From a bacterium (GTDB taxonomy: Bacteria; Cyanobacteriota; Sericytochromatia; S15B-MN24; UBA4093), in the NCBI GenBank assembly GCA_035285805.1, contig JAYKJE010000021.1:156956-220955 (forward strand): a stretch of DNA of 64,000 nucleotides. Direction: 5' to 3'. Below the pieces are notes generated by a model that searched no databases, was not told the DNA's origin, and saw nothing but the letters and a program-made list of their open reading frames with translations. Both the position numbers and the translations under genes were made by a program. Below are positions 6,979-19,861 of this stretch, piece after piece; positions within the stretch are counted from its first letter, which is position 1; each line of letters begins with the position of its first letter.

Positions 6979-7823
6979 CGGTTCACCTCTTCTGTTTGGG
7001 TGCCGCGGATGACGAGGATCCCCCGGGGTGCGGAAGGACGCTCGACGACCCGGACGGTCACGGGGACCCGGACGGGTACCCGGACCACGCGCTGGGCAGG
7101 CCCGGAATCGGGGGCCCGACGCGGGACCCCGAGCAGCGTATCGGGAGTCACCCCGGACGTCCTGGCCGTGCTGCTTTCGGCGTTCGAACGCATGGCGAGC
7201 CTGATCTTGCCGCGGTCGGCGGCCAGGATGAGACGTTCGGTGTCGGCCGGGGTCACGGCTAGCGTCGCCGACGACACCACCCGGGCGCCCTCACCGGAAG
7301 CCCGGTCGGCCTCCTGGGCGCAAGCCAGGACCCGGACGCGCTGGAGGAGGAAGTGCGTCGTCGTTTCACCCTCGACGTCCATCGTGCTCACCACGTCGAC
7401 CACCATGCCGGGTTGAACGAATCCCGCCACCCCGACGACCTCGTCGACGGCGACGGTCACGGCACGCATCCCGGGCGGAACGGGCAAGATCGCACGTTCC
7501 CTTTGACCGCGTGGCCAGAGGTGTTCCTCGAGCACGGGTTCTCCGGGAACCAGAGCGATGCGTCCCGAGCGCCCGATCAGGCCCTCGATCGAGTCCGTGG
7601 CTCCTGCCGGGGTGAAGCGTTCCGGGCGATCCTGCAGGGTCAGGTCGCGCGGGCCGATGGGTTCGTTCGGGGCCACGGTACGCAGGGCCACGACGACGGG
7701 GCGCGTGGCCTCCGGTGCGGCCTCGGAGGCCTGGACGCGGCTGAACCACCAGGTCATGCCGGCGCTCGAGGCGAGTCCGAGCCCGGCGGCGATGACGATC
7801 CGGGGAATGCGAACGGGGTTCAT
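6975..7823 (-). CDS. cpaB: Flp pilus assembly protein CpaB/RcpC
   Basis: N-terminal membrane anchor and CpaB-like composition. Overlaps the secretin gene by 4 nt, directly downstream of the tadE-like gene. Confidence 0.75.
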   Translation of the reverse strand: MNPVRIPRIVIAAGLGLASSAGMTWWFSRVQASEAAPEATRPVVVALRTVAPNEPIGPRDLTLQDRPERFTPAGATDSIEGLIGRSGRIALVPGEPVLEEHLWPRGQRERAILPVPPGMRAVTVAVDEVVGVAGFVQPGMVVDVVSTMDVEGETTTHFLLQRVRVLACAQEADRASGEGARVVSSATLAVTPADTERLILAADRGKIRLAMRSNAESSTARTSGVTPDTLLGVPRRAPDSGPAQRVVRVPVRVPVTVRVVERPSAPRGILVIRGTQTEEVNR

Positions 7824-8209
7824 GGAGCCTCCTGGCGCATCGTGGCCGTGGCGGCGAGCCAGAGCGGGACGGGAAGCCCGGGGATGCGCACGGTCACCTC
7901 GAGCGGGTGATCGAGCCGGACCTGCACGTCGGACCCGTCCGACGAGCGGGGGTGGCCGATCGATACCCGGGTCCCGGTGGTCTCGATCCCCGCACCGGAC
8001 AGGTACGCGAGCGTCGTCTCGCGCACCCGGCCGTCGGGGCGACCGAGGGCGCCCAGCCGGGCACCCTCGCGGGCAGCATTCGTGAGCACGAGCTGGGTCC
8101 CGAAAATCTGTCCCAGGGCGAAGATCCCCGTCACCAGGGCCAGGACCAGGGGCAGGGCCAGAGCCGTCTCGACGGTGGCCTGGCCAGAGACATCAGCAAG
8201 TCGCATCAC
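7820..8209 (-). CDS. tadE: TadE-like pilus assembly protein
   Basis: TadE motif ...ATVETALALPLVLALVTGIFALG...AREGARLGA. Start is GTG at 8209 or ATG at 8206. Confidence 0.7.
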   Translation of the reverse strand: MMRLADVSGQATVETALALPLVLALVTGIFALGQIFGTQLVLTNAAREGARLGALGRPDGRVRETTLAYLSGAGIETTGTRVSIGHPRSSDGSDVQVRLDHPLEVTVRIPGLPVPLWLAATATMRQEAP

Positions 8210-8218
8210 GTGTTTCCG

Positions 8219-8392
8219 TTACTTGCTGGTGCTGCTCAGCGTGTTGGCGATTGCTGATAGCATCTTGTTGACATTTGTGCCCATCATGGTCAGCGCACCG
8301 ACCGTCACGACGGCGATGAGGCCCAGGATGAGTCCGTACTCGGTCAGCGCCTGGCCGTCCTCGTCCCGGATGAAGTTCGCGAGCATGGTCAT
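8219..8392 (-). CDS. flp: Flp family type IVb pilin
   Basis: 58-aa product MTMLANFIRDEDGQALTEYGLILGLIAVVTVGALTMMG... with the Flp signature G/XXXXEY followed by a hydrophobic helix. GGAGGAG ribosome-binding site 6-7 nt upstream of the ATG at 8392. The ORF track's longer N-terminal extension is unlikely. Confidence 0.8.
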   Translation of the reverse strand: MTMLANFIRDEDGQALTEYGLILGLIAVVTVGALTMMGTNVNKMLSAIANTLSSTSK

Positions 8393-8474
8393 GGGGGATC
8401 TCCTCCTCGGTGGGGGGTGGGGGGCGAACGAGACCATCATCGTCGGCACGCGTGACGTCGCTTTCACGCTCGCG

Positions 8475-9380: not shown

Positions 9381-9516
9381 GTGTTATTGTAAACATCGAG
9401 TTACGGAGACATCGATCACAGAGCACATTTGATCTATTGATCACATATTTCTGTCGATCAGCGTGATCAAATGTCTCCAGATGATCGTTGGCACTTACCC
9501 GGAGGACCCCCCGCGC
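9375..9516. promoter_or_regulatory. AT-rich divergent intergenic/promoter region with a dense cluster of seven GATC (Dam) sites
   Basis: GATC at about 9375, 9414, 9431, 9439, 9456, 9465 and 9483, including repeated TGATCA half-palindromes. About 85 bp of under 40% GC inside a roughly 70% GC genome. Lies between the 301-aa gene (start 9380, minus) and dam (start 9517, plus). Confidence 0.6.
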
Positions 9517-10347
9517 ATGGCCCGTACACGTTCCCTGTCTCTCCCCACCAAGGCGCAGCCCTTCCTGAAATGGGCGGGGGGGAAGACTCGCCTGCTGGCC
9601 CAGTTCGAGCCGATGTTTCCGCGGCGGTTCCGGCGCTACCACGAACCCTTCATCGGGGCGGGAGCCGTGTTCTTCCACCTGCAGGCACGCGAGGCCTTCA
9701 TCTCGGACACCAATCCGGACCTCATCACGTGTTACCAGGTCCTCCAGGCGGACCCGGCCAGCCTGATCGAGGTGCTCCGGTTGTACCGTCATGATCGCGA
9801 TTTCTACTATCACGTTCGCGATCTCGATCCCCGCGAGCTGAGTCCCGTCCAGCGGGCCGCGCGGATGATCTTTCTCAACAAGACCTGCTTCAACGGCCTC
9901 TGGCGCGTCAACCGGCAGGGGCGCTTCAACGTGCCATTCGGAGATTACAAGAATCCCCGGATCGTCGATGCCGACAACCTGGCTCTCGTTCACGCAGCCT
10001 TGCAGGACGTCCACATCCGGCAGGCCGGGTTCGAGCAGGCCCTGGCCGACGTCGAACGCGGGGATTTCGTGTACCTCGACCCGCCCTATCATCCGGTCAG
10101 CACGACGGCCCGATTCACGAGTTACGGGGCCGATGACTTCCGGGAAGCCGACCAGCGTCGACTCGCGGAGGAGTTTCGTCGCCTGGATGCGCGCGGTGCC
10201 CGGGTCATGCTGTCGAACTCCGACACGCCCCTGGTGCACGAGCTCTATGCCGGTTATCGGCTCGACCTCGTCACCTGCAACCGGGCGATCAACCGGGATG
10301 CCTCCAAGCGTGGCGCCATCCACGAGGTGGTCGTCCGGAACTACTGA
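9517..10347 (+). CDS. dam: DNA adenine methyltransferase (Dam family, GATC-specific N6-adenine MTase)
   Basis: FLKWAGGK AdoMet-binding motif and catalytic DPPY (YLDPPYHP), Dam-like length. GGAGGA ribosome-binding site 10 nt upstream of the ATG at 9517. The ORF track's start at 9463 (GTG) lies inside the AT-rich region. Confidence 0.85.
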   Translation: MARTRSLSLPTKAQPFLKWAGGKTRLLAQFEPMFPRRFRRYHEPFIGAGAVFFHLQAREAFISDTNPDLITCYQVLQADPASLIEVLRLYRHDRDFYYHVRDLDPRELSPVQRAARMIFLNKTCFNGLWRVNRQGRFNVPFGDYKNPRIVDADNLALVHAALQDVHIRQAGFEQALADVERGDFVYLDPPYHPVSTTARFTSYGADDFREADQRRLAEEFRRLDARGARVMLSNSDTPLVHELYAGYRLDLVTCNRAINRDASKRGAIHEVVVRNY

Positions 10348-10543: not shown

Positions 10544-11431
10544 TCACTTCGCGAGCATCTCGCCTGGCAGGTGATGGGTCCACACGAGCCCCGCGATGAG
10601 CAGGCCGAGGGCGATGCGGTAGCCGATGAAGCCCCACATCGACCGCTGCTGCAGGAACTGCATCAGGAACCGGATGCAGAGGTATCCCACGACGCCCGAG
10701 GTCACGATTCCCACGGCGAACGCCGGCAACTGCGGGCTCGCGAGGATGTGGTTCAAGATGCCGGCGGGTTGGGTTCCCTGCAGCCGGCTAGCGACGCCCT
10801 CGACGGTATCCTTGGCCTTGAACAGGCAACTGGCCAGGATGATGGGGAAGCCTAGCAGGAACGAGAACCGGGCGGCGGACTCGCGGCTGAACCCCATGAA
10901 CATCGCAGCCGTCATGGTCGCACCGGAACGCGAGGTGCCCGGTATCAGCGCGCAGGCCTGGGCGATCCCGATGGCGATCGCCTGGGGCAGGCGCAGGTGG
11001 GTGAGTTCCCGGACTCTCGACCCCACGACCTCGGCGAGCCCGAGCAGGAAGGCGACCCCGATGAGCATCGTGGAGATGACGAGGGGAGAACGGAAGGTGG
11101 TCTCGACGGCCTCTTCGAGCATGAGGCCGGCGGCGGCGGCAGGCACGCACCCCAGCACGACCATCCAGGCCAGGCGTGCCTCGTCGTTCCAGGCAGCCCG
11201 TCCCTTCGTCACGCTCAGCAGTCCTGCCCGTCCCATTCCGATGAAGTCGCGCCAGAAGTAAACCGCGACGGCGGTGAACGTGCCGAGATGCAGGGCCACG
11301 TCGAACGTCAGACCAGGGTCTTTCCAGCCCAGGAGTGCCGGGACGAGGATGAGATGTGCCGTGCTGGAAATGGGGAGGAATTCACTCACTCCCTGGACGG
11401 CGCCGAGCACGGCTGCCTGGAAGAGATCCAC
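10544..11431 (-). CDS. uppP: undecaprenyl-diphosphate phosphatase
   Basis: BacA/UppP family signature (VSEFLPISSTAHLIL...; multi-pass membrane protein). Confidence 0.9.
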   Translation of the reverse strand: MDLFQAAVLGAVQGVSEFLPISSTAHLILVPALLGWKDPGLTFDVALHLGTFTAVAVYFWRDFIGMGRAGLLSVTKGRAAWNDEARLAWMVVLGCVPAAAAGLMLEEAVETTFRSPLVISTMLIGVAFLLGLAEVVGSRVRELTHLRLPQAIAIGIAQACALIPGTSRSGATMTAAMFMGFSRESAARFSFLLGFPIILASCLFKAKDTVEGVASRLQGTQPAGILNHILASPQLPAFAVGIVTSGVVGYLCIRFLMQFLQQRSMWGFIGYRIALGLLIAGLVWTHHLPGEMLAK

Positions 11432-11522: not shown

Positions 11523-12092
11523 TCAGTAGGAAATGCTCGATCCGAGGCCGATCGCCGCCTGGGACAGCAGGGCGAGTTCCTGCATGCTCGGCGGGGTGTA
11601 GGAGCGCCCCTCGTTGGCAGCGATCTCGAAAGCCTTGGCCGTCAGGGCCGCGAACAGCACGCCGCGCTGGATGTCCTGACCGAAGCCGGACCCCGAGTAG
11701 CGTGAGAGGTCACCGGGGCTCCGGATGCCCGACCGGACCATCAGGTGCGCGGCATCCGGGGACATGTTCCGGATTCGCATCATGTCGGCCATCTGACCGT
11801 ATACGATGAGCCGGTCGGCAGGGATGCCGGTGAGGAAGGACGTGATCGATCGTCGGAACCCTCCGCCCGTCGCAAAGCGCAACATGAACGGGTTTCCGGC
11901 GCCGACCATCCGCAACCGGTGAAGGTCCTGGTCGTTCCCGAGCAACCGGCTCATCAGGTACAGGTTAGCACTGCCCTGGCTTTCCATCACGGGCTGCCGG
12001 GCCAGGACGGGGGCGGCGCCACCTGCCTGGACGGCGCTGGTGGCCAGCGCGGGGCGTGCATAGGTGAGGGACGGGATGCCCTGGACTTGCAT
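11523..12092 (-). CDS. hypothetical protein (189 aa)
   Basis: ORF only. No recognisable motif. Moderate coding-like bias. Confidence 0.35.
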   Translation of the reverse strand: MQVQGIPSLTYARPALATSAVQAGGAAPVLARQPVMESQGSANLYLMSRLLGNDQDLHRLRMVGAGNPFMLRFATGGGFRRSITSFLTGIPADRLIVYGQMADMMRIRNMSPDAAHLMVRSGIRSPGDLSRYSGSGFGQDIQRGVLFAALTAKAFEIAANEGRSYTPPSMQELALLSQAAIGLGSSISY

Positions 12093-12243
12093 GGGGGTCC
12101 TCCTGCCACTGGACGGTCTGACGAGGGGCTTATCGGACCGGAGATGTTCCAGCTTTCTTAAGTCGGGTTCAAGCCCAGATGAACTCCCGGGTCATGCCAG
12201 GGTTTGACAACCTGCCCTGTCGCACGATAGGCTCCAGATGTCG

Positions 12244-12320
12244 CGGGGCGTAGCGCAGCTTGGTAGCGCATCTGCTTTGGGAGCAGAGGGTCGTGGGTTC
12301 GAATCCCACCGCTCCGACCA
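12244..12320 (+). tRNA. tRNA-Pro (anticodon TGG)
   Basis: Cloverleaf folded by hand. Acceptor CGGGGCG/CGCTCCG, D-arm GCGCAGCTTGGTAGCGC, anticodon stem-loop TCTGC-TTTGGGA-GCAGA, T-arm GTGGGTTCGAATCCCAC, 3' ACCA encoded. Confidence 0.85.
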
Positions 12321-12325
12321 GTCGC

Positions 12326-12397
12326 GCGGGTGTAACTCAGCGGTAGAGTTCCTGCCTTCCAAGCAGGATGTCGTGGGTTCGAATCCCATCGCCCGCT
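12326..12397 (+). tRNA. tRNA-Gly (anticodon TCC)
   Basis: Acceptor GCGGGTG/CGCCCGC, D-stem ACTC/GAGT, anticodon stem-loop CCTGC-CTTCCAA-GCAGG, T-arm GTGGGTTCGAATCCCAT. CCA not encoded. Confidence 0.85.
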
Positions 12398-12414
12398 CTC
12401 ACAGGTCGCTCACG

Positions 12415-12450
12415 CCGAGCCCTCCTCCTGGAGGGCTCGGTTGTTGTTCG
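12415..12450 (+). terminator. hairpin (GAGCCCTCC-tcc-t-GGAGGGCTC) plus TTGTTGTT after the tRNA pair
   Basis: Perfect 9-bp GC-rich stem followed by a T-rich stretch immediately downstream of tRNA-Gly. Confidence 0.45.
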
Positions 12451-12569
12451 AGGACCTCGGGTTCCTGCACGGCTTTGAGAAAATACCATTAAGTTTCCGT
12501 TTGCCCCCGTAAGCTTGCGTTTCGGCGGGGAAAAAACAGGCATGTCGGGACCGGTCAACGGAGAGTGTC

Positions 12570-13367
12570 ATGAGCAGTGCCATCCACGTCATTCCTGATC
12601 CTGCCCAGCTTCTGGCCGAGGCACGTGCTGCGATCGTCAAGAGCCGGTACTTCCAGCACGGCAGGACGGACCGCTACGGCCATGTCGTGGGGTTGCGCGA
12701 GTATCCCGCCGGACGCGTGCCCACGGATCATCAGGTTCATCACTACGACCAGGCCGGGCGAGTCATCCTGTTCGAGAAATACACGAGAGATTTCTCGAAG
12801 CCCACGTATCGACTGTATCGCTATGCTGGAAACGTCATGAACGAGGCCATCTGGATCGACCGCTATGGCCACATCGAACATCATCACTGCTTCCAGTACG
12901 ACCGGGTCACCGGTCAGATGGTCTGGCGGGCCGAGTACCAGCCCGACGGGACGCTGTTCTACAGCGTCGCATCCACCTACGACTCGGTCGGAAACCTCAT
13001 CGAGGATGCCTATTTCGACCGGAATGACGTGTTCGTGAAGCGGGAGGCTTACGAGCACGACAAGGCGGGAGATGTCACCCGCGAACGTTTCTATGACCAC
13101 GAGAATGCCCTGGTGGGGTTCAACACGTTCACCTACGACAAGCAGAGGCGGCTGACCGCTCGCATCTGGCATGGACCGGATGGCGTGCGACGTTCCCGTT
13201 TCGCCTACACCTACGATCGCCAGGACAGGCTGTCTCGTCTCACCGTGTATGGTCCCACCGACAAGAATCCTCTGGTCCAGGAGTTCACGTATGACGACGT
13301 GGGTAGCGTCACCCGGGAACGCTGGATGGAGGCCTCGGGACAGGTCGTCAAGGAACTCGTCTTCTGA
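12570..13367 (+). CDS. YD-repeat (Rhs/teneurin-type repeat) protein, 265 aa, no signal peptide
   Basis: At least six YD-type repeats (HYDQAGRV, YDSVGNL, YEHDKAGDV, YDKQRRL, YTYDRQDRLSRL, YDDVGSV). No Rhs core or toxin domain. The AT-richer region 12476-12545 upstream is a likely promoter. Confidence 0.7.
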   Translation: MSSAIHVIPDPAQLLAEARAAIVKSRYFQHGRTDRYGHVVGLREYPAGRVPTDHQVHHYDQAGRVILFEKYTRDFSKPTYRLYRYAGNVMNEAIWIDRYGHIEHHHCFQYDRVTGQMVWRAEYQPDGTLFYSVASTYDSVGNLIEDAYFDRNDVFVKREAYEHDKAGDVTRERFYDHENALVGFNTFTYDKQRRLTARIWHGPDGVRRSRFAYTYDRQDRLSRLTVYGPTDKNPLVQEFTYDDVGSVTRERWMEASGQVVKELVF

Positions 13368-13402
13368 GGCCTGCCGGTCTCACATTTCCCCCTGGAGGAG
13401 CC

Positions 13403-14479
13403 ATGAGCGATATCTCGGGTATCGATCCCATCAAACAGACCGTCAAGATCAATGCGGCGGCGATCGCCGCCGCCGCGGCGTCCGCGCAAGCCGTGCCCGG
13501 GGCCACCGAGGCCCCTGCCCGCGATCAGGTCAGCATCCAGACATCCGATGCGTCCGACCTGGGCCTGGGGGAAGCCGCAGGTCCCGGGGGGCAGCGCGGG
13601 CGCATCCTGCCCGAGGCCGCTCCTGCCGATCTCATGTCGGCCATCGGTAGCGCTCCCGTCGCGAGCGCGATGCCGGGGATGAGCGCTCCAGGCAAGTCGA
13701 TCGAGGTGCCACGACCCAAGCCGGCCCCCCCCATCCAGTCCACGCCTCGGTCGGACGTGCCCTCGAGCGTGTCCTACAGCTCTCCTTCCTCGGTCAAGCC
13801 CGAACCGCGCTATCTCGACGTCCAGGGCTGCACCGGCATGGGGGCCGCCTCGGGGAAGTCTTACAAGGTGCTCGAGAGTGATGCGATCGCCATGTACTCG
13901 CTGCTCAAGGAGAAGCCCCTCTGGAAGATGGATGAACTGAAGTACGCCCTCCAGGCCTACTTCGGGATCGAGGCCGAGGTGACCAAGGTGGATGGCCGCA
14001 ACGCCATCGTCGGGACCGACGGACGCATCATCGCTGTCGACACGGAGGGCAACGGGGCGATCGACATCAACGATCTCCAGTTCGGTCAGGCCCTCTCTGC
14101 GGCAGGCGTCGACATCTCGCAGATCAAGAGTGCCAGCGAGATGATGAAGGACCGTCTGAACGCGATGAATCTCGCGCTCAAGGTGTCGGAAGATCTCCAG
14201 AAGATGAACCAGGAGATCGCGGAACGCGAGATGACGATGGCCTCCATCCGAGCCAGCGCGGAAGCCGCCGATGCGAAGGCACGCGGTGCGGCTGCCGCGG
14301 TCGCAGCTTCCGGCCTGACCTCGGTGACCCCGTCCTCGAATCCGGGTTCTTCGTCGTCCTCGTCCTCGTCTTCGCCGTCGCCAGGGGCCTCGTCCGCCGG
14401 CGCGGCGGCCGCTGCGGCGGGGGCGTCGGCCGCCGCAGCACCGTCGGCACCTTCCGGCGGTGGTAAGGGAATGGCCTGA
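13403..14479 (+). CDS. hypothetical protein (358 aa) with Ala/Ser/Pro-rich N- and C-terminal low-complexity regions
   Basis: ORF 35 nt after the YD-repeat gene. Its stop overlaps the next start (ATGA). The C-terminus is SSSSSSSSPSPGASSAGAAAAAAGASAAA. Confidence 0.55.
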   Translation: MSDISGIDPIKQTVKINAAAIAAAAASAQAVPGATEAPARDQVSIQTSDASDLGLGEAAGPGGQRGRILPEAAPADLMSAIGSAPVASAMPGMSAPGKSIEVPRPKPAPPIQSTPRSDVPSSVSYSSPSSVKPEPRYLDVQGCTGMGAASGKSYKVLESDAIAMYSLLKEKPLWKMDELKYALQAYFGIEAEVTKVDGRNAIVGTDGRIIAVDTEGNGAIDINDLQFGQALSAAGVDISQIKSASEMMKDRLNAMNLALKVSEDLQKMNQEIAEREMTMASIRASAEAADAKARGAAAAVAASGLTSVTPSSNPGSSSSSSSSSPSPGASSAGAAAAAAGASAAAAPSAPSGGGKGMA

Positions 14480-14757
14480 TGGATACTCCGCTGCTCACCC
14501 GTGCCGAGGTCGTCGAGCGCATCGAGCGCTTCAATGCCTGCCTGGCTCGCGAACACGAACTCAAGAAGAAGCTGGTCACCATGAAGATCCGCGGCGATTT
14601 CCAGCGCGTGCGCGAGATGATGTCCGAGCACGACGCCCTCATCGCCGAGATCAGTCGCATCCAGCTCGAGGAGATGGTGCCCATCATCGTGGAGCTGGAC
14701 CGTTTCACCAAGGCAGGCCTCGCCGTCCTGGAAGCCTACAACCGTGACAAGTCGTAA
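14479..14757 (+). CDS. hypothetical small helical protein (92 aa)
   Basis: Start overlaps the upstream stop (ATGA). The downstream rSAM gene begins 14 nt before its stop, so it is translationally coupled on both sides. Confidence 0.5.
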   Translation: MDTPLLTRAEVVERIERFNACLAREHELKKKLVTMKIRGDFQRVREMMSEHDALIAEISRIQLEEMVPIIVELDRFTKAGLAVLEAYNRDKS

Positions 14758-16588
14758 AGCCCTGCTGGTCTTTCCCCCGCAGTGGACCCCCCAGAATCCG
14801 CACTTCGCCCTGCGCGCTCTGGCGGGTCACCTGCGGGCCAACGGTATCGAGGTCGCCGTGCGCGACCTCAATGTCGAGTACTACGATTCCATCCTGACGC
14901 CGGAAAGCCTCTCGCTGGCCCGGGATCGGATCCGTCTGGACCTGGAGTACCTCGGATATCAGACCATCATCCGGCAGATGATCGACGAGCAGAGCCACCA
15001 GGCGGACGTCGACGCAGCTCGGTTCATGGCCATGAAGCGATTCGAGGACAACCATCCCGGTGCCCTCGATCGCCTGCCGGGCCTGATCCTCGACGCGAAG
15101 GAGACTCTCCGCGATCCACGCCGCTATTACAACCCGGATTACCTGATCGACGCGTTCCGGACCATCGATCTGGCGTTGCAGGCCCTGTCGTTGCCGTACC
15201 ATCCGGCCAACCTCTCGTACATCTACTTCGACCAGCCGGATGCCCGGTTCACGATCCGCACGGCGCACGAGTTCGCCAGCTCACCCACGGCGAACATGTT
15301 TCATGCGTTCTTCGAGGCGCAGATCGATTCGCTCCTGGCCGAGGAGGCATCCTACATCGGCATCTCGATCAACTCGTTCTCCCAGGTGCTGCCGGGCCTC
15401 ACGCTGGCGCACATGCTGCGGAAAGCCGCGCCGCCCGGTGTCCATATCGGACTGGGGGGCAATCACCTGGGGCGCGTCAAGGAGACGTTGCTCGAGAGAC
15501 CCGATTTCTTCGAGTTTTTCGCCCACAGTCTCGCGACCAGCGAGGGCGAGCAGCAACTGGTCCACATGGTCCAGGCCCTCGTGGACGGACGGAGCCTCGA
15601 GGATGTCCCCAACATCTTGTATGTCGGCGAGGACGGCGTGCCCCGGGCCTCGAAGGCGGCGAAGCCGCCGCAGATGGACCGGATCGGTCACCAGGACCTG
15701 GCCGGTCTGCCCATGGACCTCTACTTCTCCCCCGAGCCCTTGCTGACCATCCAGGCCAGCAAGGGGTGCTACTGGGGTAAATGCTCGTTCTGCGATTCGT
15801 TCTTCGGAGTCGATCTCGACTTCAAGTCGATCGACAAGCTCGTCGCCGAGATCCGTCATCTCAAGGAGACCTACGGCGTCCGGTTGTTCCAGTTCATCGA
15901 CGAGGCGCTCCCACCGAACTACATGGAGGCGATGGCCCGACGCTTCATCGAGGAGAAGCTGGACATCCAGTGGTTCAGCAACGGACGCCTCGAGACGGGC
16001 TTCACCCCGGAGCTCATGAGCCTCCTGCATGAGGCCGGTCTGCGCATGGTCCTGTGGGGATACGAGACGGGGGCGCCGCGCATCCACAACCTCATCAAGA
16101 AGGGGGTGGCGTTCAGCCGGCGCCATGACATCCTTCGCGGGGCGGCAGAGGCGGGCATCTTCAATTTCGCGTACATCTTTTTCGGCTTTCCCTCCGAGAC
16201 CCTCGAGGAGGCAAACGCCACGATCGATGCCATGTGCGAGAACACGGACATCATTCACGCGTACGGACGCTCGGTCTTCACCCTCGGCAAGCAGAGCCCG
16301 CTCTACGCCGATCTGGAGAAGAACGGAGACATTCTCGAGGCCGTCGTGGACATCGAGGATCTGTCGTCCAACATCTCGTTCAAGACCCGTGGTGGCATGT
16401 CCGACGAGGAACTGCATGCGGTCATGAAATCGTGCACCACCCGGTGCGCCGAGGCCTATGACCACGCGCTGTGGTTCTACCTCCGGAGCCGGGAGAACAT
16501 CCACTACTACCTGGCCCGGTTCGGGGCCGAGCACGTGCGGAAGGCCACGTTCAAGCGATTCCATGCCCAGCCCGTCGAGCAGGCCTGA
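14744..16588 (+). CDS. B12-binding domain radical SAM protein (class B rSAM-like) with variant CX4CX2C cluster motif
   Basis: N-terminal B12-binding-like region (KALLVFPPQW...). Fe-S motif KGCYWGKCSFCDSF. Elongated TIM-barrel-like rSAM core. 614 aa. Confidence 0.8.
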   Translation: MTSRKALLVFPPQWTPQNPHFALRALAGHLRANGIEVAVRDLNVEYYDSILTPESLSLARDRIRLDLEYLGYQTIIRQMIDEQSHQADVDAARFMAMKRFEDNHPGALDRLPGLILDAKETLRDPRRYYNPDYLIDAFRTIDLALQALSLPYHPANLSYIYFDQPDARFTIRTAHEFASSPTANMFHAFFEAQIDSLLAEEASYIGISINSFSQVLPGLTLAHMLRKAAPPGVHIGLGGNHLGRVKETLLERPDFFEFFAHSLATSEGEQQLVHMVQALVDGRSLEDVPNILYVGEDGVPRASKAAKPPQMDRIGHQDLAGLPMDLYFSPEPLLTIQASKGCYWGKCSFCDSFFGVDLDFKSIDKLVAEIRHLKETYGVRLFQFIDEALPPNYMEAMARRFIEEKLDIQWFSNGRLETGFTPELMSLLHEAGLRMVLWGYETGAPRIHNLIKKGVAFSRRHDILRGAAEAGIFNFAYIFFGFPSETLEEANATIDAMCENTDIIHAYGRSVFTLGKQSPLYADLEKNGDILEAVVDIEDLSSNISFKTRGGMSDEELHAVMKSCTTRCAEAYDHALWFYLRSRENIHYYLARFGAEHVRKATFKRFHAQPVEQA

Positions 16589-16589
16589 C

Positions 16590-18173
16590 GTGGCGCCGGG
16601 GCGATCGGTCTCGTTCTCCCTCCGGGTGGCATGTGCCATCCTCCTGGTCACGGGATGCACGACTGCGGTCCTTCCAGGCACGGGGTCGCCATCCCGCGGG
16701 CAGACACCATCATCGGTGGGCGAGGACGCACGTTCCGTGTCCGTCTCGGGGCAGGTTCTCGGGGAGGATGGAGTCCCCGTGGCCGGGGTGCGCATCCGGA
16801 TCTATCCGGCACCGGAGGATCCGCTCAAGACGGTGGCCCCGCTTCGCACGGTCGCTCCCCTGAAAAGCGTGGCTCCCTACCGCGCCCTCGCTGCCACCGA
16901 CGCCCGTGAGACCGTGACCGATGAGTCCGGGCAATACCGGATGGCGGGGCTTGCCGGGGGGCCCTGGGCCGTGCTGGCCGAGCAAGGTGATCGCCTCAAG
17001 GCCTTTGCCCGGATCGAGGTGGGTGATGGCGCCCCTCCGGGCGTCTCCTTGCGCCTTCAGCCGACCGGTGGCATCCGCGGGGTGGTCACGGCACCCGACC
17101 AGCCCCTCGTGAACGATTTCACGCGGGTGGAAGTGTTCGTCCCCGGTTTACCGTACGTGGTCCGACCTTCCGAGAACGGGACCTTCCTGATCACCGGATT
17201 GCCCGTCGGAGATCACGTGCTGCGCGCTTACCGCGAGGGCCTCGGTGAGGCCGGACGGGGCGAGGTCAGGGTCGAACCCGGCGGGGTCACGGACGTCGGG
17301 GCGATGGTGCTCACCCGGAGGGTGCCGCGTCTGACTCGCCTCGATCCCCCGTACGTGCCAGAAGGCGGCGTCTTGCGGCTGGTCGGCGAGAACCTGGGCA
17401 TCCAGACGGGAGATCCCTTCCAGGTGTACATCGACGGGAAGGTCGTCCGTGGCGCCAGGGCCATCGATGCGGCCACGATCGAGGTGCCAGTCACGTCGGG
17501 CGTGGCTTCCGGCAAGGTCTTCGTCACGGTGGGCTCCCTCGAGAGCAACGAACTGCCGTTCCAGAAGATCGTCGACCTCGCGATCGGCGTTCCGGACGGT
17601 GCTCTCGCCCTGTCGCTCGGGCAAACGCGACGGATTCCCACCGCCATCGGGATTCCGGACGATGGCTACGAACCGGTACACCTGGCCGTCGGTCCGGTCT
17701 GGACCCTCTCGGGAACCGCGGCTACCATGGACGCGGATCGGGTGCTGCGGGCGGTCCGGGAGGGGGACGGCGAACTCTCCCTCACGTGGGGGGAGCTCCG
17801 GGCCACCCGGAACATTCGCGTGTATCCGTCGGATTCGTGGACACCCTCTGCGCTCGTCGGGCAGCATCTCGTCTTGGGGGATGACGATGGACCCGCGGAT
17901 CGAGCGTTCCTGCGCGGCCCGTCGCAACTCGTCTTCGATGCTCGCGGGCGTCTCATCCTCGCAGATGAAAACCCTTCGGAAGACGGCGAGACCTTCGACC
18001 CCGGTCCGGAGGCGAGCCGGCTTCGCATCCTGGACGATGGGGTCCTGCGCCCCTGGAGCGTGCACCTCCCGGGCGGAGAGCCCTTCTCGTTCGTTCAACC
18101 TCGCGGCATGGCCTCGCGCCGGACGGTGGCGTGCTGGTCGCAGACGCCGGTTTGCAGCAAGTCTACCGCGTGA
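16590..18173 (+). CDS. lipoprotein with two CarboxypepD_reg-like domains, an IPT/TIG domain and NHL repeats (5' portion; reading frame appears disrupted near 18110)
   Basis: GTG start 2 nt after the rSAM stop. Signal peptide with lipobox LLVTGC. Motifs VSGQVLGEDGVPVAGVRIRIY, TDESGQYRMAGL (CarboxypepD_reg), GGVLRLVGENLG (TIG), and PSQLVFDARGRLILAD (NHL). The track's ATG at 16458 lies inside the rSAM gene. Confidence 0.7.
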   Translation: MAPGRSVSFSLRVACAILLVTGCTTAVLPGTGSPSRGQTPSSVGEDARSVSVSGQVLGEDGVPVAGVRIRIYPAPEDPLKTVAPLRTVAPLKSVAPYRALAATDARETVTDESGQYRMAGLAGGPWAVLAEQGDRLKAFARIEVGDGAPPGVSLRLQPTGGIRGVVTAPDQPLVNDFTRVEVFVPGLPYVVRPSENGTFLITGLPVGDHVLRAYREGLGEAGRGEVRVEPGGVTDVGAMVLTRRVPRLTRLDPPYVPEGGVLRLVGENLGIQTGDPFQVYIDGKVVRGARAIDAATIEVPVTSGVASGKVFVTVGSLESNELPFQKIVDLAIGVPDGALALSLGQTRRIPTAIGIPDDGYEPVHLAVGPVWTLSGTAATMDADRVLRAVREGDGELSLTWGELRATRNIRVYPSDSWTPSALVGQHLVLGDDDGPADRAFLRGPSQLVFDARGRLILADENPSEDGETFDPGPEASRLRILDDGVLRPWSVHLPGGEPFSFVQPRGMASRRTVACWSQTPVCSKSTA

Positions 18174-18850
18174 GTGCCGACGGCGAGGTGACCCTCGTGG
18201 CCGGATCGGGCGATGAAGGCTTCACGGACGGGCCGGCACTCGCGGCGCGTTTCTCGAATCCCTGGGCGATCGCCGTGGCGTCCGATGGCCGGATCGCCGT
18301 GAGCGATCTCGGCAACCATCGCATCCGGCTCATCGTGAACGGGGCCGTCTCGACTCTTGCCGGGACGGGTCAGGATGCGCTCGTCGATGGGCCTGTCGGA
18401 ACGGGGTGCCTGCATCAGCCGTACGGGCTGGCATGGGCTCCTGATGGCGTCCTCTGGAGCTCGGATGTGGGGGGGAACTGCCTGCGAACCATCGATCCAG
18501 CGGGCGACATCCGGACCGTCAGCCGCAAGGTGGGGCTACTCGACGGGCCCCTGCTCGATGCCCTGTTTGCGTCTCCCACGGCTGAAGGTCCGCTCGGCGA
18601 GGTCGATTTTCGCTGGCCATACGGCATCCGTTTCGACCGGGAGGGCACACTCTGGGTCTGCGACTGGCAGAGTACCCTGATCCGGCGCGTGAAGGACGGC
18701 CTCGTGTCGACCGTCAAGAGACGGGACAGGGAGTTCGTCGAAGGCTTGCCCTTTCAGGGAATCACGGGGAACTACGCGATCGACTTCGATCCGGACGGTC
18801 ACGCGGTCGTCAACAACGTCTGGTGGCACACGATCATCCGTCTGCAGTGA
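18131..18850 (+). CDS. NHL-repeat protein, probably the 3' continuation of the 16590 lipoprotein gene after a frameshift
   Basis: NHL repeats (APDGGVLVADAGLQQVYRV, PWAIAVASDGRIAVSDLGNHRIRLI, PYGLAWAPDGVLWSSDVGGNCLR, PYGIRFDREGTLWVCDWQSTLIRRV). The frame is open upstream to 17969 and, joined with the upstream frame, reconstitutes a perfect NHL repeat. Confidence 0.65.
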   Translation: MLVADAGLQQVYRVSADGEVTLVAGSGDEGFTDGPALAARFSNPWAIAVASDGRIAVSDLGNHRIRLIVNGAVSTLAGTGQDALVDGPVGTGCLHQPYGLAWAPDGVLWSSDVGGNCLRTIDPAGDIRTVSRKVGLLDGPLLDALFASPTAEGPLGEVDFRWPYGIRFDREGTLWVCDWQSTLIRRVKDGLVSTVKRRDREFVEGLPFQGITGNYAIDFDPDGHAVVNNVWWHTIIRLQ

Positions 18851-18856
18851 CAGGTC

Positions 18857-19861
18857 TCAGGTTGCCGAGCGCACGACCAGGTAGCTCTTGACGAGGCGTC
18901 CGTCCGTGCGAGTCTCGGCCTTGCCTGGGACGAGCATGTGGCTCGAACCCCCACCGTCGAGTGCGTAGGCTTCCACGGCGCCGAGGCGCTTCAGCAGGAG
19001 CGCGCCCTCGGCCATGTTGCCGCCGGCCCCGCGATTGCTGCCCTCGCCCAGCGTCACGGCCAGGAGTCGTCCCTGGGCATCGAGCCCCACGAAGGTCCGG
19101 GCGATCGAACTGGCCAGGTCGACGTTCGGGAAGCTCCGGTCGGCCACGCCCCGGTCGAGCCGAGCCCGGAATGCGCCGGTTTCGACGTCGCGTTCGAGCC
19201 GCACGGCCTCTTCGGGACCGAACAGGCGCCCCAGGCCACCGATGAAGCCCTTCACGTCCTGGCGAGCCAGACCCGACTCGACCAGCCCACCCTTCACGAA
19301 CCGGAGGCTGCCATCCTCGAGGGAGGCCAGAGACCAGCGGCGATCGCTGATCTGGTCGTAGCCGCGATTGGGATTGTCCTCGTCGAGAACCGCTTTCCCC
19401 AGGCCCACCAGATCGCCGTAGGTGGCTTCGCCCTGACCCATGCCGAAGAAGGTCGCGTTGACGGCAGCGAGCATGCCCGGAATCTGCCGGATCGCCGAGG
19501 GGGGGACGCCCGTCTTGCCGTCGTAGAAGCCGGCTTCTACCTTCACCTGCCGGGGATCGATCAGCAGCACCCGTGCCAGGGAGCCGTCCGCGGTGCGACG
19601 GGTATCATCCAGCCAGAGGCCCGGGACGACCTCGACCCGCTTGCGGGTGAAGCCCATGAAGCCCCCCATCCAGTCCATGAACCGGAGCACGGGAGAGGGC
19701 CATTCGAAGCGAAGCAACCGTTCGCGCGTGCTCTGGCTCGTTCCGAAGCGAGCGATGTCGCGGGCGGGGGCGCTGGCTGCCCGGAAAGACCCTCCGGACG
19801 CTCGTGGGGCTACTCCTGACGGATGGGCTGTCCGGGGCGGGGCATCGAGACGGGACACCAT
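18857..19861 (-). CDS. phosphodiester glycosidase family protein (NAGPA/DUF2233-like)
   Basis: Family-typical LDGGGSS motif and FFGMGQGEATYGDLVG region. Start uncertain (the N-terminus of the ORF is Arg/Ala-rich, so an internal Met start is likely). Confidence 0.65.
   Translation of the reverse strand: MVSRLDAPPRTAHPSGVAPRASGGSFRAASAPARDIARFGTSQSTRERLLRFEWPSPVLRFMDWMGGFMGFTRKRVEVVPGLWLDDTRRTADGSLARVLLIDPRQVKVEAGFYDGKTGVPPSAIRQIPGMLAAVNATFFGMGQGEATYGDLVGLGKAVLDEDNPNRGYDQISDRRWSLASLEDGSLRFVKGGLVESGLARQDVKGFIGGLGRLFGPEEAVRLERDVETGAFRARLDRGVADRSFPNVDLASSIARTFVGLDAQGRLLAVTLGEGSNRGAGGNMAEGALLLKRLGAVEAYALDGGGSSHMLVPGKAETRTDGRLVKSYLVVRSAT

Follow-up and report, generated by a model that had tools for sequence, protein, structure and literature searches.

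A cytoplasmic mini YD-repeat protein belongs to a conserved gene cassette around a radical-SAM enzyme with a predicted B12 domain

What is understood about YD repeats comes almost entirely from the walls of secreted toxin containers and from teneurins. In Tse5, the Rhs shell is closed by 40 hairpins, and the features that define Rhs toxins include the motif DPXGX18DPXG (PMC10684867). Here, we compare with these systems a 265-aa YD protein encoded in a 64-kb stretch of contig JAYKJE010000021.1 (about 67% G+C; "the window" hereafter means this whole stretch), where its gene lies beside those of a radical S-adenosylmethionine (SAM) enzyme and of two further proteins, P358 and P92. The protein has the same beta-hairpin repeat as the shells of Rhs proteins, Tc-BC components and teneurins (Tse5, RhsA, TcdB2-TccC3, teneurin-2); the repeat turns at Y-D-x-x-G and recurs about every 26 aa. 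We are highly confident in the joint claim that the gene is real, that its product has a YD fold and that it is a dedicated member of a conserved cassette; in this rare family, present across several phyla, a toxin-shell repeat is reused inside the cell. The gene, its parts and its upstream surroundings are listed below.

12244-12320, tRNA-Pro gene, 5' of the YD gene
12326-12398, tRNA-Gly gene, 5' of the YD gene
12414..12441, plus strand, terminator-like hairpin after tRNA-Gly, 12-bp stem with 9 GC pairs, then a T-rich tail
12560..12563, plus strand, Shine-Dalgarno-like GGAG as read from the sequence, 7-10 nt 5' of the ATG at 12570
12570..13367, plus strand, mini YD-repeat protein gene, ATG start, 265 aa, orthogroup linked to the radical-SAM cassette
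12570..12719, plus strand, N-terminal non-repeat segment, residues 1-50, amphipathic helix 11-21 and then the conserved loop G37..EYP..P51
12720..13364, plus strand, eight in-register YD beta-hairpin repeats, residues 51-265, period about 26 aa

The YD gene is real, as seen from its ribosome-binding site, the stable boundaries of its family and the purifying selection that acts on it. The last follows from the codon differences to a genome related at 97%, which comprise 32 synonymous and 5 non-synonymous changes; the radical-SAM gene is similar in this respect (66:17). Both the reading frame and the sequence quoted for it are exactly as described in the initial annotation of this DNA. Because the terminator-like hairpin stands behind tRNA-Gly, the YD gene opens a same-strand block, and this hairpin is the upstream boundary of the cassette. 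The block is compact, with a 35-bp gap between the YD gene and P358, a 1-nt overlap (ATGA) between P358 and P92, and a 14-nt overlap between P92 and the radical-SAM gene. A sigma-70 promoter scan returned no site and is uninformative in this lineage.

Once put in register, eight YD repeats occupy residues 51-265, six of them clear and two degenerate, and each is laid out as a strand, a Y-D-x-x-G turn, a second strand and a G/D turn. About six repeats had been annotated before, and all six motifs quoted at that time are present, with only the count in need of revision. Judged from the sequence of this protein alone, the repeat call would be borderline: TIGR01643 (NCBIfam) passes with 17.1 bits against a cut-off of 15.8, and PF05593 RHS_repeat (Pfam) stays just under its own with 20.7 bits against 22. 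Two orthologues clear the PF05593 threshold, with 34.5 bits (L062) and 26 bits (L042). A structure prediction, proposed earlier as a check on the repeats, gave a confident YD-type sheet: the AlphaFold2 model has a mean predicted local distance difference test score (pLDDT) of 88.7 and a predicted template-modelling score of 0.74, and consists of one helix (11-21) followed by about 19 consecutive strands. Confidence is lower in residues 1-50 than in the repeats, and the loop 29-55 is the least confidently modelled part.

Moreover, the top 30 Foldseek matches of this model in the PDB were all Rhs effectors, Tc toxin BC components, teneurins and other YD-shell proteins (E 4e-10 to 2e-6, probability 1.0). 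Their template-modelling scores of 0.15-0.41 are low because an open strip is here compared with a closed cocoon. Single-layer-sheet OspA variants came next behind the YD shells. Among other beta-repeat families, DUF2963 was considered and rejected (20.2 bits against a cut-off of 22.6, E 3.9e-4), and no MORN-type match was obtained. Taken together, the predicted structure and the scores of the orthologues indicate that the repeats are YD repeats and not DUF2963 or another beta-repeat family, and the protein is accordingly modelled with a YD-type fold.

By repeat and fold, the protein belongs to the YD-repeat superfamily, and it fails all other defining features of Rhs toxins. In contrast to Rhs-type toxins (Rhs, TcB/TcC, WapA), it lacks a toxin, a DPXGX18DPXG protease and any domain for secretion or targeting, and it is a cytoplasmic protein partnered with an enzyme cassette rather than with a secretion system. 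In this regard, no hydrophobic N-terminal segment was found (maximum 12-residue hydropathy 1.15), and Pfam, NCBIfam and PADLOC recognised no secretion-directing domain on it. DPxG is absent from the protein, and the Rhs core motif DPxG-x(15-22)-DPxG occurs in none of the six frames of the window. No C-terminal toxin domain is present, for the YD protein stops with repeat eight, and its orthologues stop there or run into a TPR domain. The earlier description of a protein lacking signal peptide, Rhs core and C-terminal toxin was therefore correct. It differs from Rhs-type shells in having eight hairpins against about 40, with neither a closed cocoon nor plugs. The Tse5 shell needs 40 hairpins to close, about five times the eight present here, so a single YD chain cannot enclose anything, and the suggestion that it might serve as an encapsulating partner is not supported; the alternative suggestion of a carrier is plausible. 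The protein is a complete, signal-less, cytoplasmic single-chain strip of eight YD beta-hairpins with a short capping helix and loop.

A word-index homologue search returned the identical protein of a metagenome-assembled genome (MAG), "hypothetical protein VKP72_05555", and only two relatives, P0002 (46% identity) and P0003 (24%); the orthogroup surfaced only through a locus scan anchored on the radical-SAM enzyme combined with iterative hidden Markov models. In an exhaustive profile search for YD-type proteins, 25,692 cluster representatives were recovered at E <= 1e-3. Among the top 150 matches, 62 were shorter than 450 aa, and 44 of these 62 had a signal- or lipoprotein-like N-terminus, so the initial annotation was partly right in placing YD repeats normally in very large secreted proteins, although small ones are common. 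The small secreted or lipoprotein YD proteins have the same repeat and measure 260-450 aa; one of them, P0003 (289 aa, from a Bacteroidota-like integrative element), aligns over most of the length of the YD protein at 24% identity. They differ by their signal N-termini, by the lack of an adjoining radical-SAM gene, and by scores with the orthogroup model that do not exceed about 100 bits.

This model was built solely from radical-SAM-linked YD proteins; with it, 14 members scored 195-372 bits over their full length, while the other YD proteins in the top 150 stayed at or below about 100 bits over partial length. None of the 14 members has a signal-like N-terminus. All 33 family copies from loci bearing the radical-SAM gene align as a single domain (model positions about 6-265), which points to fixed boundaries and a fixed repeat number. 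Outside the YD consensus, residues P51, R120, E122 and W200 are invariant in 20 orthologues, and G37 is nearly so. Furthermore, the orthologues from Myxococcota continue into a fused C-terminal TPR domain, and those of a Bacillota-type clade have long disordered N-terminal extensions. A short amphipathic motif recurs in the latter ("YAALQKAAGMF", "FQALKQTAGIF", "FAALMKTAAVF"; seen in P0124, P0126, L009 8945-9343, L025 and L023) and could be a docking motif. No fusion of the YD protein with P358 or P92, of the Rosetta-stone kind, was found, the extensions of P0124 and P0126 being of low complexity and free of P358 or P92 homology.

The conserved cassette consists of P358, P92, the radical-SAM enzyme and the YD protein. 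The partners of the YD gene in the window are the following.

13403..14479, plus strand, P358, 358 aa, low-complexity N-terminus, alpha/beta core, long helix (coiled coil) and Ala/Ser-rich tail, no curated family
13775..14212, plus strand, conserved core of P358, about residues 125-270, including the G-x-G-M-G motif, pLDDT 80-90
14039..14074, plus strand, predicted EF-hand-like loop DTEGNGAIDIND of conserved pattern, P358 residues 213-224
14479..14757, plus strand, P92, 92 aa, helical hairpin, start overlapping the P358 stop (ATGA)
14744..16588, plus strand, radical-SAM enzyme, 614 aa, predicted N-terminal B12-binding-type domain (class B architecture)
15767..15793, plus strand, cluster-binding motif C342-x4-C347-x2-C350 (GCYWGKCSFC), invariant in 16 homologues down to 41% identity

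The conservation of the cassette was assessed in 79 loci anchored on the radical-SAM gene, with one genome per species, whose six-frame open reading frames were searched with iterated hidden Markov models of the four window proteins; absence of the YD gene refers to these loci. The YD gene stands next to the cassette in 28 of the 79 loci. Within the clade that has recognisable P358 and P92, it is present in 28 of 34 assessable loci, to which five loci cut off on the relevant side are additional, and it was not found in six loci with at least 4 kb of flank 3' of the radical-SAM gene (L026, L035, L037, L044, L047 and L049). In the opposite direction, a reciprocal scan of metagenome contigs, based on a YD alignment of seven closer sequences, gave cassette genes adjacent in 10 of 10 YD-anchored loci. 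On the contig of P0002, for instance, a 91-aa protein (32% identity to P92) is followed by a 624-aa radical-SAM enzyme (53% identity to that of the window) and a 260-aa YD protein.

Gene order varies by lineage, with YD first or last, and adjacency is kept. The usual order is P358, P92, radical-SAM, YD, with the last two genes 8-70 bp apart in most loci. The YD gene directly follows the radical-SAM gene in 23 of 28 genome loci and has moved to the front in the window and its closest relatives (L007/L013, L010, L012 and L014). YD-last is the ancestral order and YD-first the derived one, so that "first gene of the operon", as had been annotated, is true of the window and does not describe the family. 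In a neighbour-joining tree of the enzymes, all YD-positive loci fall in one clade, and absence of the YD gene corresponds to a UBP9-type subclade plus L026. Two-way linkage, together with this agreement with the enzyme tree, argues for long-term co-inheritance rather than chance adjacency. The homologue and neighbourhood search advised at the outset thus located the orthogroup beside cassette genes in several phyla and substantiated the proposed tie between the YD protein and the adjacent radical-SAM gene, which shows in both scan directions and follows the enzyme phylogeny.

YD-positive loci carry the labels Sericytochromatia/Tanganyikabacteria (the lineage of the window, with L010 97% identical), "Cyanobacteria bacterium" MAGs, Bacillota, Chloroflexota, Vulcanimicrobiota, Deltaproteobacteria and Myxococcota, as well as one Pseudomonadota-labelled MAG. 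Around window positions 12001-16000, G+C content is slightly lower in the cassette than the 67% of the window (YD gene 59.5%, P92 60.6%, radical-SAM gene 62.6%), and the cassette sits directly 3' of the two tRNA genes; lower G+C, tRNA neighbours and the patchy spread over phyla are compatible with horizontal acquisition. In the Myxococcales MAG CAYXDO01, two cassettes were observed (L045 and L062), both with YD-TPR fusions. Clustering of the locus genes revealed no neighbour conserved across phyla other than the cassette genes, and no curated family covering the cassette was found. In the literature, we encountered no paper describing the cassette or joining YD/RHS repeats with radical SAM, and no relevant paper linking cobalamin radical SAM to Melainabacteria or Sericytochromatia.

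Beyond the YD-bearing clade, all Melainabacteria in the sample, about 24 loci whose radical-SAM enzymes are 33-40% identical to that of the window, have no adjacent YD gene. They keep a divergent P358-like gene, recognised by profile-profile comparison (probability 90%, E 1.4e-6) and sharing the D-x-N-G-N-G loop (DANGNGALE), and behind the enzyme a helical protein of about 110 aa with a weak resemblance to P92. P358 and P92, which the initial annotation had passed over as partners, are more widely conserved companions of the enzyme than the YD protein. The widely conserved unit is a P358-like protein, a small helical protein and the enzyme, to which the YD protein was added, or in which it was retained, in one large clade, where it is an obligate member. 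As this trio persists without an adjacent YD gene in the UBP9-type subclade, in L026 and in Melainabacteria, the YD protein is probably an accessory and not a universal substrate. No P358 gene was found near L009 and L025, of the Bacillota-type clade. The most distant radical-SAM relatives seen, at 31-34% identity, are L084, L085, L087 and L088 from Nitrospinota and L086 from Dehalogenimonas; those of Nitrospinota are tandem pairs of radical-SAM paralogues, beside which none of the three partner genes is detectable.

The enzyme has a clear radical-SAM core (PF04055, E 6e-16, 59.5 bits against a cut-off of 29.5). Its cluster-binding motif, CX4CX2C, is one residue longer than the canonical CX3CX2C, and C564 and C568 near the C-terminus are nearly invariant. 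B12 binding is predicted: PF02310 gives a weak match in the window enzyme (19.1 bits against a cut-off of 32.1) and a precomputed one in several homologues. The closest solved structure is OxsB, whose profile match (E 1e-12, positions 192-483) takes in both domains; the nearest NCBIfam models are TIGR03975 and PhpK, with all NCBIfam scores far under cut-off (103 against 282 bits). With the class B enzymes OxsB, the TIGR03975 C-methyltransferases of ribosomally synthesized and post-translationally modified peptides (RiPPs) and PhpK, the window enzyme shares a radical-SAM core, preceded in its case by a predicted B12-binding-type domain, and it departs from these characterised members by its CX4CX2C motif and by partners (P358, P92 and YD) unlike any of theirs.

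The core of P358 carries the G-x-G-M-G motif and the EF-hand-like loop (VDTEGNGAIDINDLQF), and all full-length family members examined show the loop pattern D-x-[DNSEAG]-G-[DNS]-[GN]; metal binding is putative, with weak Pfam EF-hand matches (E 0.05-0.3). The core model gave no significant fold match. Its flanks are of low complexity (Ala/Ser/Pro/Gly, or Met/Gly in some phyla), and many members end in a hydrophobic tail of the F-x-x-A-Y-x-Y-A type. In two Sericytochromatia genomes (L014 6484-7701 and L032 135-1352), the core, loop included, is tandemly duplicated. We presume that the last 45 residues of a Myxococcota homologue (L059 6186-7700, "...DLQNMLQKQQQTLQLLSNISKMLHDNAMSVIRKLSA") resemble the C-terminal helix of type III secretion needles or filaments, and likewise that several N-termini from Myxococcota and Deltaproteobacteria (MTTINTSYNINVFQN..., MAVNLNIQTNVNIQ...) are similar to those of flagellins, both likenesses being without Pfam support. 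P92 is fused to the P358 C-terminus in six loci (L008, L017, L018, L019, L026 and L072), and its profile found nothing significant in the PDB or Pfam.

RiPP recognition elements, the PqqD-like peptide chaperones, offer a functional analogy only: each is a small non-catalytic protein that accompanies a radical-SAM enzyme, and holding a polypeptide is what we propose for the YD protein, whose fold is unrelated. A match of TIGR04353 (PqqD-like) to P358 residues 149-191 is insignificant (E 0.08). No gene for a short precursor peptide fits into the compact operon, with its 35-bp gap and two overlaps, and P92, conserved over its whole length as a helical hairpin, is not precursor-like. With no fitting precursor gene and no clear recognition element, the cassette does not match the classical RiPP pattern.

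As to function, we tentatively favour, at somewhat less than an even chance, an adaptor or holdase role: the YD protein, open and non-enclosing, would serve a cassette protein around the radical-SAM enzyme. The open eight-hairpin sheet would form a binding platform for an extended segment of such a protein, held on its tyrosine-lined face in the way that disordered toxin is held inside Rhs shells. Precedent comes from the Rhs shell. Its YD tyrosines line the cavity, and for the toxin fragment, which is flexible or disordered, the shell "functions as a chaperone" (PMC10684867). The most plausible ligand would be the long low-complexity N-terminal region of P358, which the YD protein may keep available to the enzyme, or protected around it. 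The fusion to TPR, a protein-binding module, in Myxococcota and the disordered N-terminal extensions in the Bacillota-type clade are both hints of a protein-binding role. Furthermore, this region of P358 spans 93-272 aa in YD-positive loci versus 29-85 aa in YD-negative ones, a difference that is suggestive as a hint to binding.

Several observations weigh against the adaptor role. The correlation between P358 length and presence of the YD gene is phylogenetically confounded, because the YD-negative loci amount to two or three clades. No charge complementarity emerged between the net charge of the YD protein and segments of P358 (Spearman p 0.23-0.87). One MAG (JAZDOK01) holds a YD-positive cassette (L022) together with a YD-negative one (L035), so that cassettes without the gene might use a YD protein encoded elsewhere, which weakens the argument for its dispensability. 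In addition, the enzyme could act on a small molecule, and its protein partners would then have other roles.

A more far-reaching proposal, which we consider possible although doubtful, is that the four genes form a protein-directed radical-SAM system, in which the mini YD sheet would recognise or hold the substrate and the enzyme would modify the disordered region of P358 or the YD protein. If so, the system would be new, with the YD protein as a recognition module, and a toxin-shell repeat would have given rise to a functional counterpart of the RiPP recognition element.

It is unlikely that the YD protein is itself the substrate, with one of its conserved residues C-methylated, for example, or otherwise modified by radical chemistry, and with the other two proteins aiding recognition. 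The position of the gene, usually directly 3' of that of the enzyme with gaps of 8-70 bp in most loci, would agree with this, as would the four invariant residues outside the YD consensus and the conserved loop 29-55, which could be an exposed target; the nearest NCBIfam models also include peptide and protein C-methyltransferases, all far under threshold. However, the sequence alone bears no sign of modification, and the trio of P358-like protein, helical protein and enzyme is kept in clades without an adjacent YD gene, where the enzyme must have another substrate.

We regard as quite improbable that several mini YD strips assemble into a closed, cocoon-like cage around the enzyme product or P358. 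A cage would agree with the spiral curvature inherent in YD sheets and with a length and repeat number that are the same in all orthologues, and five copies would amount to the roughly 40 hairpins of a Tse5-type shell. Such a cage would nevertheless have to accommodate the N-terminal cap, the TPR domain and the disordered extensions, and free-standing single-layer sheets (the OspA variants) are also among the structural matches.

We likewise give little credence to a YD protein that acts on the end product of the cassette, by binding or sequestering it for self-protection or storage, instead of helping the enzyme. Its conserved place as last gene in the ancestral order and its loss from some clades that keep the enzyme would suit such a role, but nothing points to a toxic product. 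The genes conserved nearby include no transporter, protease or immunity-like gene, and the PADLOC defence models had no match among the four cassette proteins. Finally, one could take the gene as left over from a large rhs or teneurin-like gene that was disrupted, or as having no relation to the radical-SAM gene next to it. This idea is refuted, since notwithstanding a protein with a teneurin-type NHL domain 3-5 kb downstream, which is not conserved beside the cassette elsewhere, the YD proteins form a discrete orthogroup whose boundaries are identical at more than 35 loci from several phyla. The gene also has a ribosome-binding site and is under purifying selection, and all frames of the window lack the Rhs core motif; the initial annotation had likewise seen no flanking remnants of an rhs gene.

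In the adaptor reading, the mini YD protein would offer a small, tractable model for the holding of polypeptides by YD sheets. A signal-less eight-hairpin protein of fixed length, co-inherited with an enzyme cassette over several phyla, indicates that the YD repeat can serve as an open intracellular module. The cassette itself is widespread and includes a large clade of radical-SAM enzymes with CX4CX2C and a predicted B12 domain, and all of its components lack a curated family and a solved relative. It is prominent in the non-photosynthetic relatives of cyanobacteria, namely Sericytochromatia and, for the three-gene core, Melainabacteria, and represents a defined target in the search for a new radical-SAM reaction.

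Further genes were identified on both sides of the cassette.

7820-8467, minus strand, Tad/Flp-pilus-like small open reading frames, TadE-like (MMRLADVSGQATVETALALPLVL...) and Flp-type pilin (…GQALTEYGLILGLIAVVTVGAL…), assigned from translations only
9463-10347, plus strand, D12-class N6-adenine DNA methyltransferase, E 1.8e-61
10544-11431, minus strand, undecaprenyl-diphosphatase BacA, E 9e-78
16563-18173 and 18131-18850, plus strand, lipoprotein-like gene (MPSPSS...LLVTGC lipobox, CarboxypepD_reg domains) and its apparent NHL-repeat continuation
18857-19861, minus strand, phosphodiester glycosidase (NAGPA) domain protein

The lipoprotein-like gene begins 26 nt before the stop codon of the radical-SAM gene and is not conserved beside the cassette in other lineages. 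Near 18100-18135 there is an apparent frameshift, where the sequence reads "PRGMA|SRR..." in one frame and resumes as "...APDGGVLVADAGLQQVYRV" in the next; the split lipoprotein/NHL gene could be a pseudogene or an assembly error.

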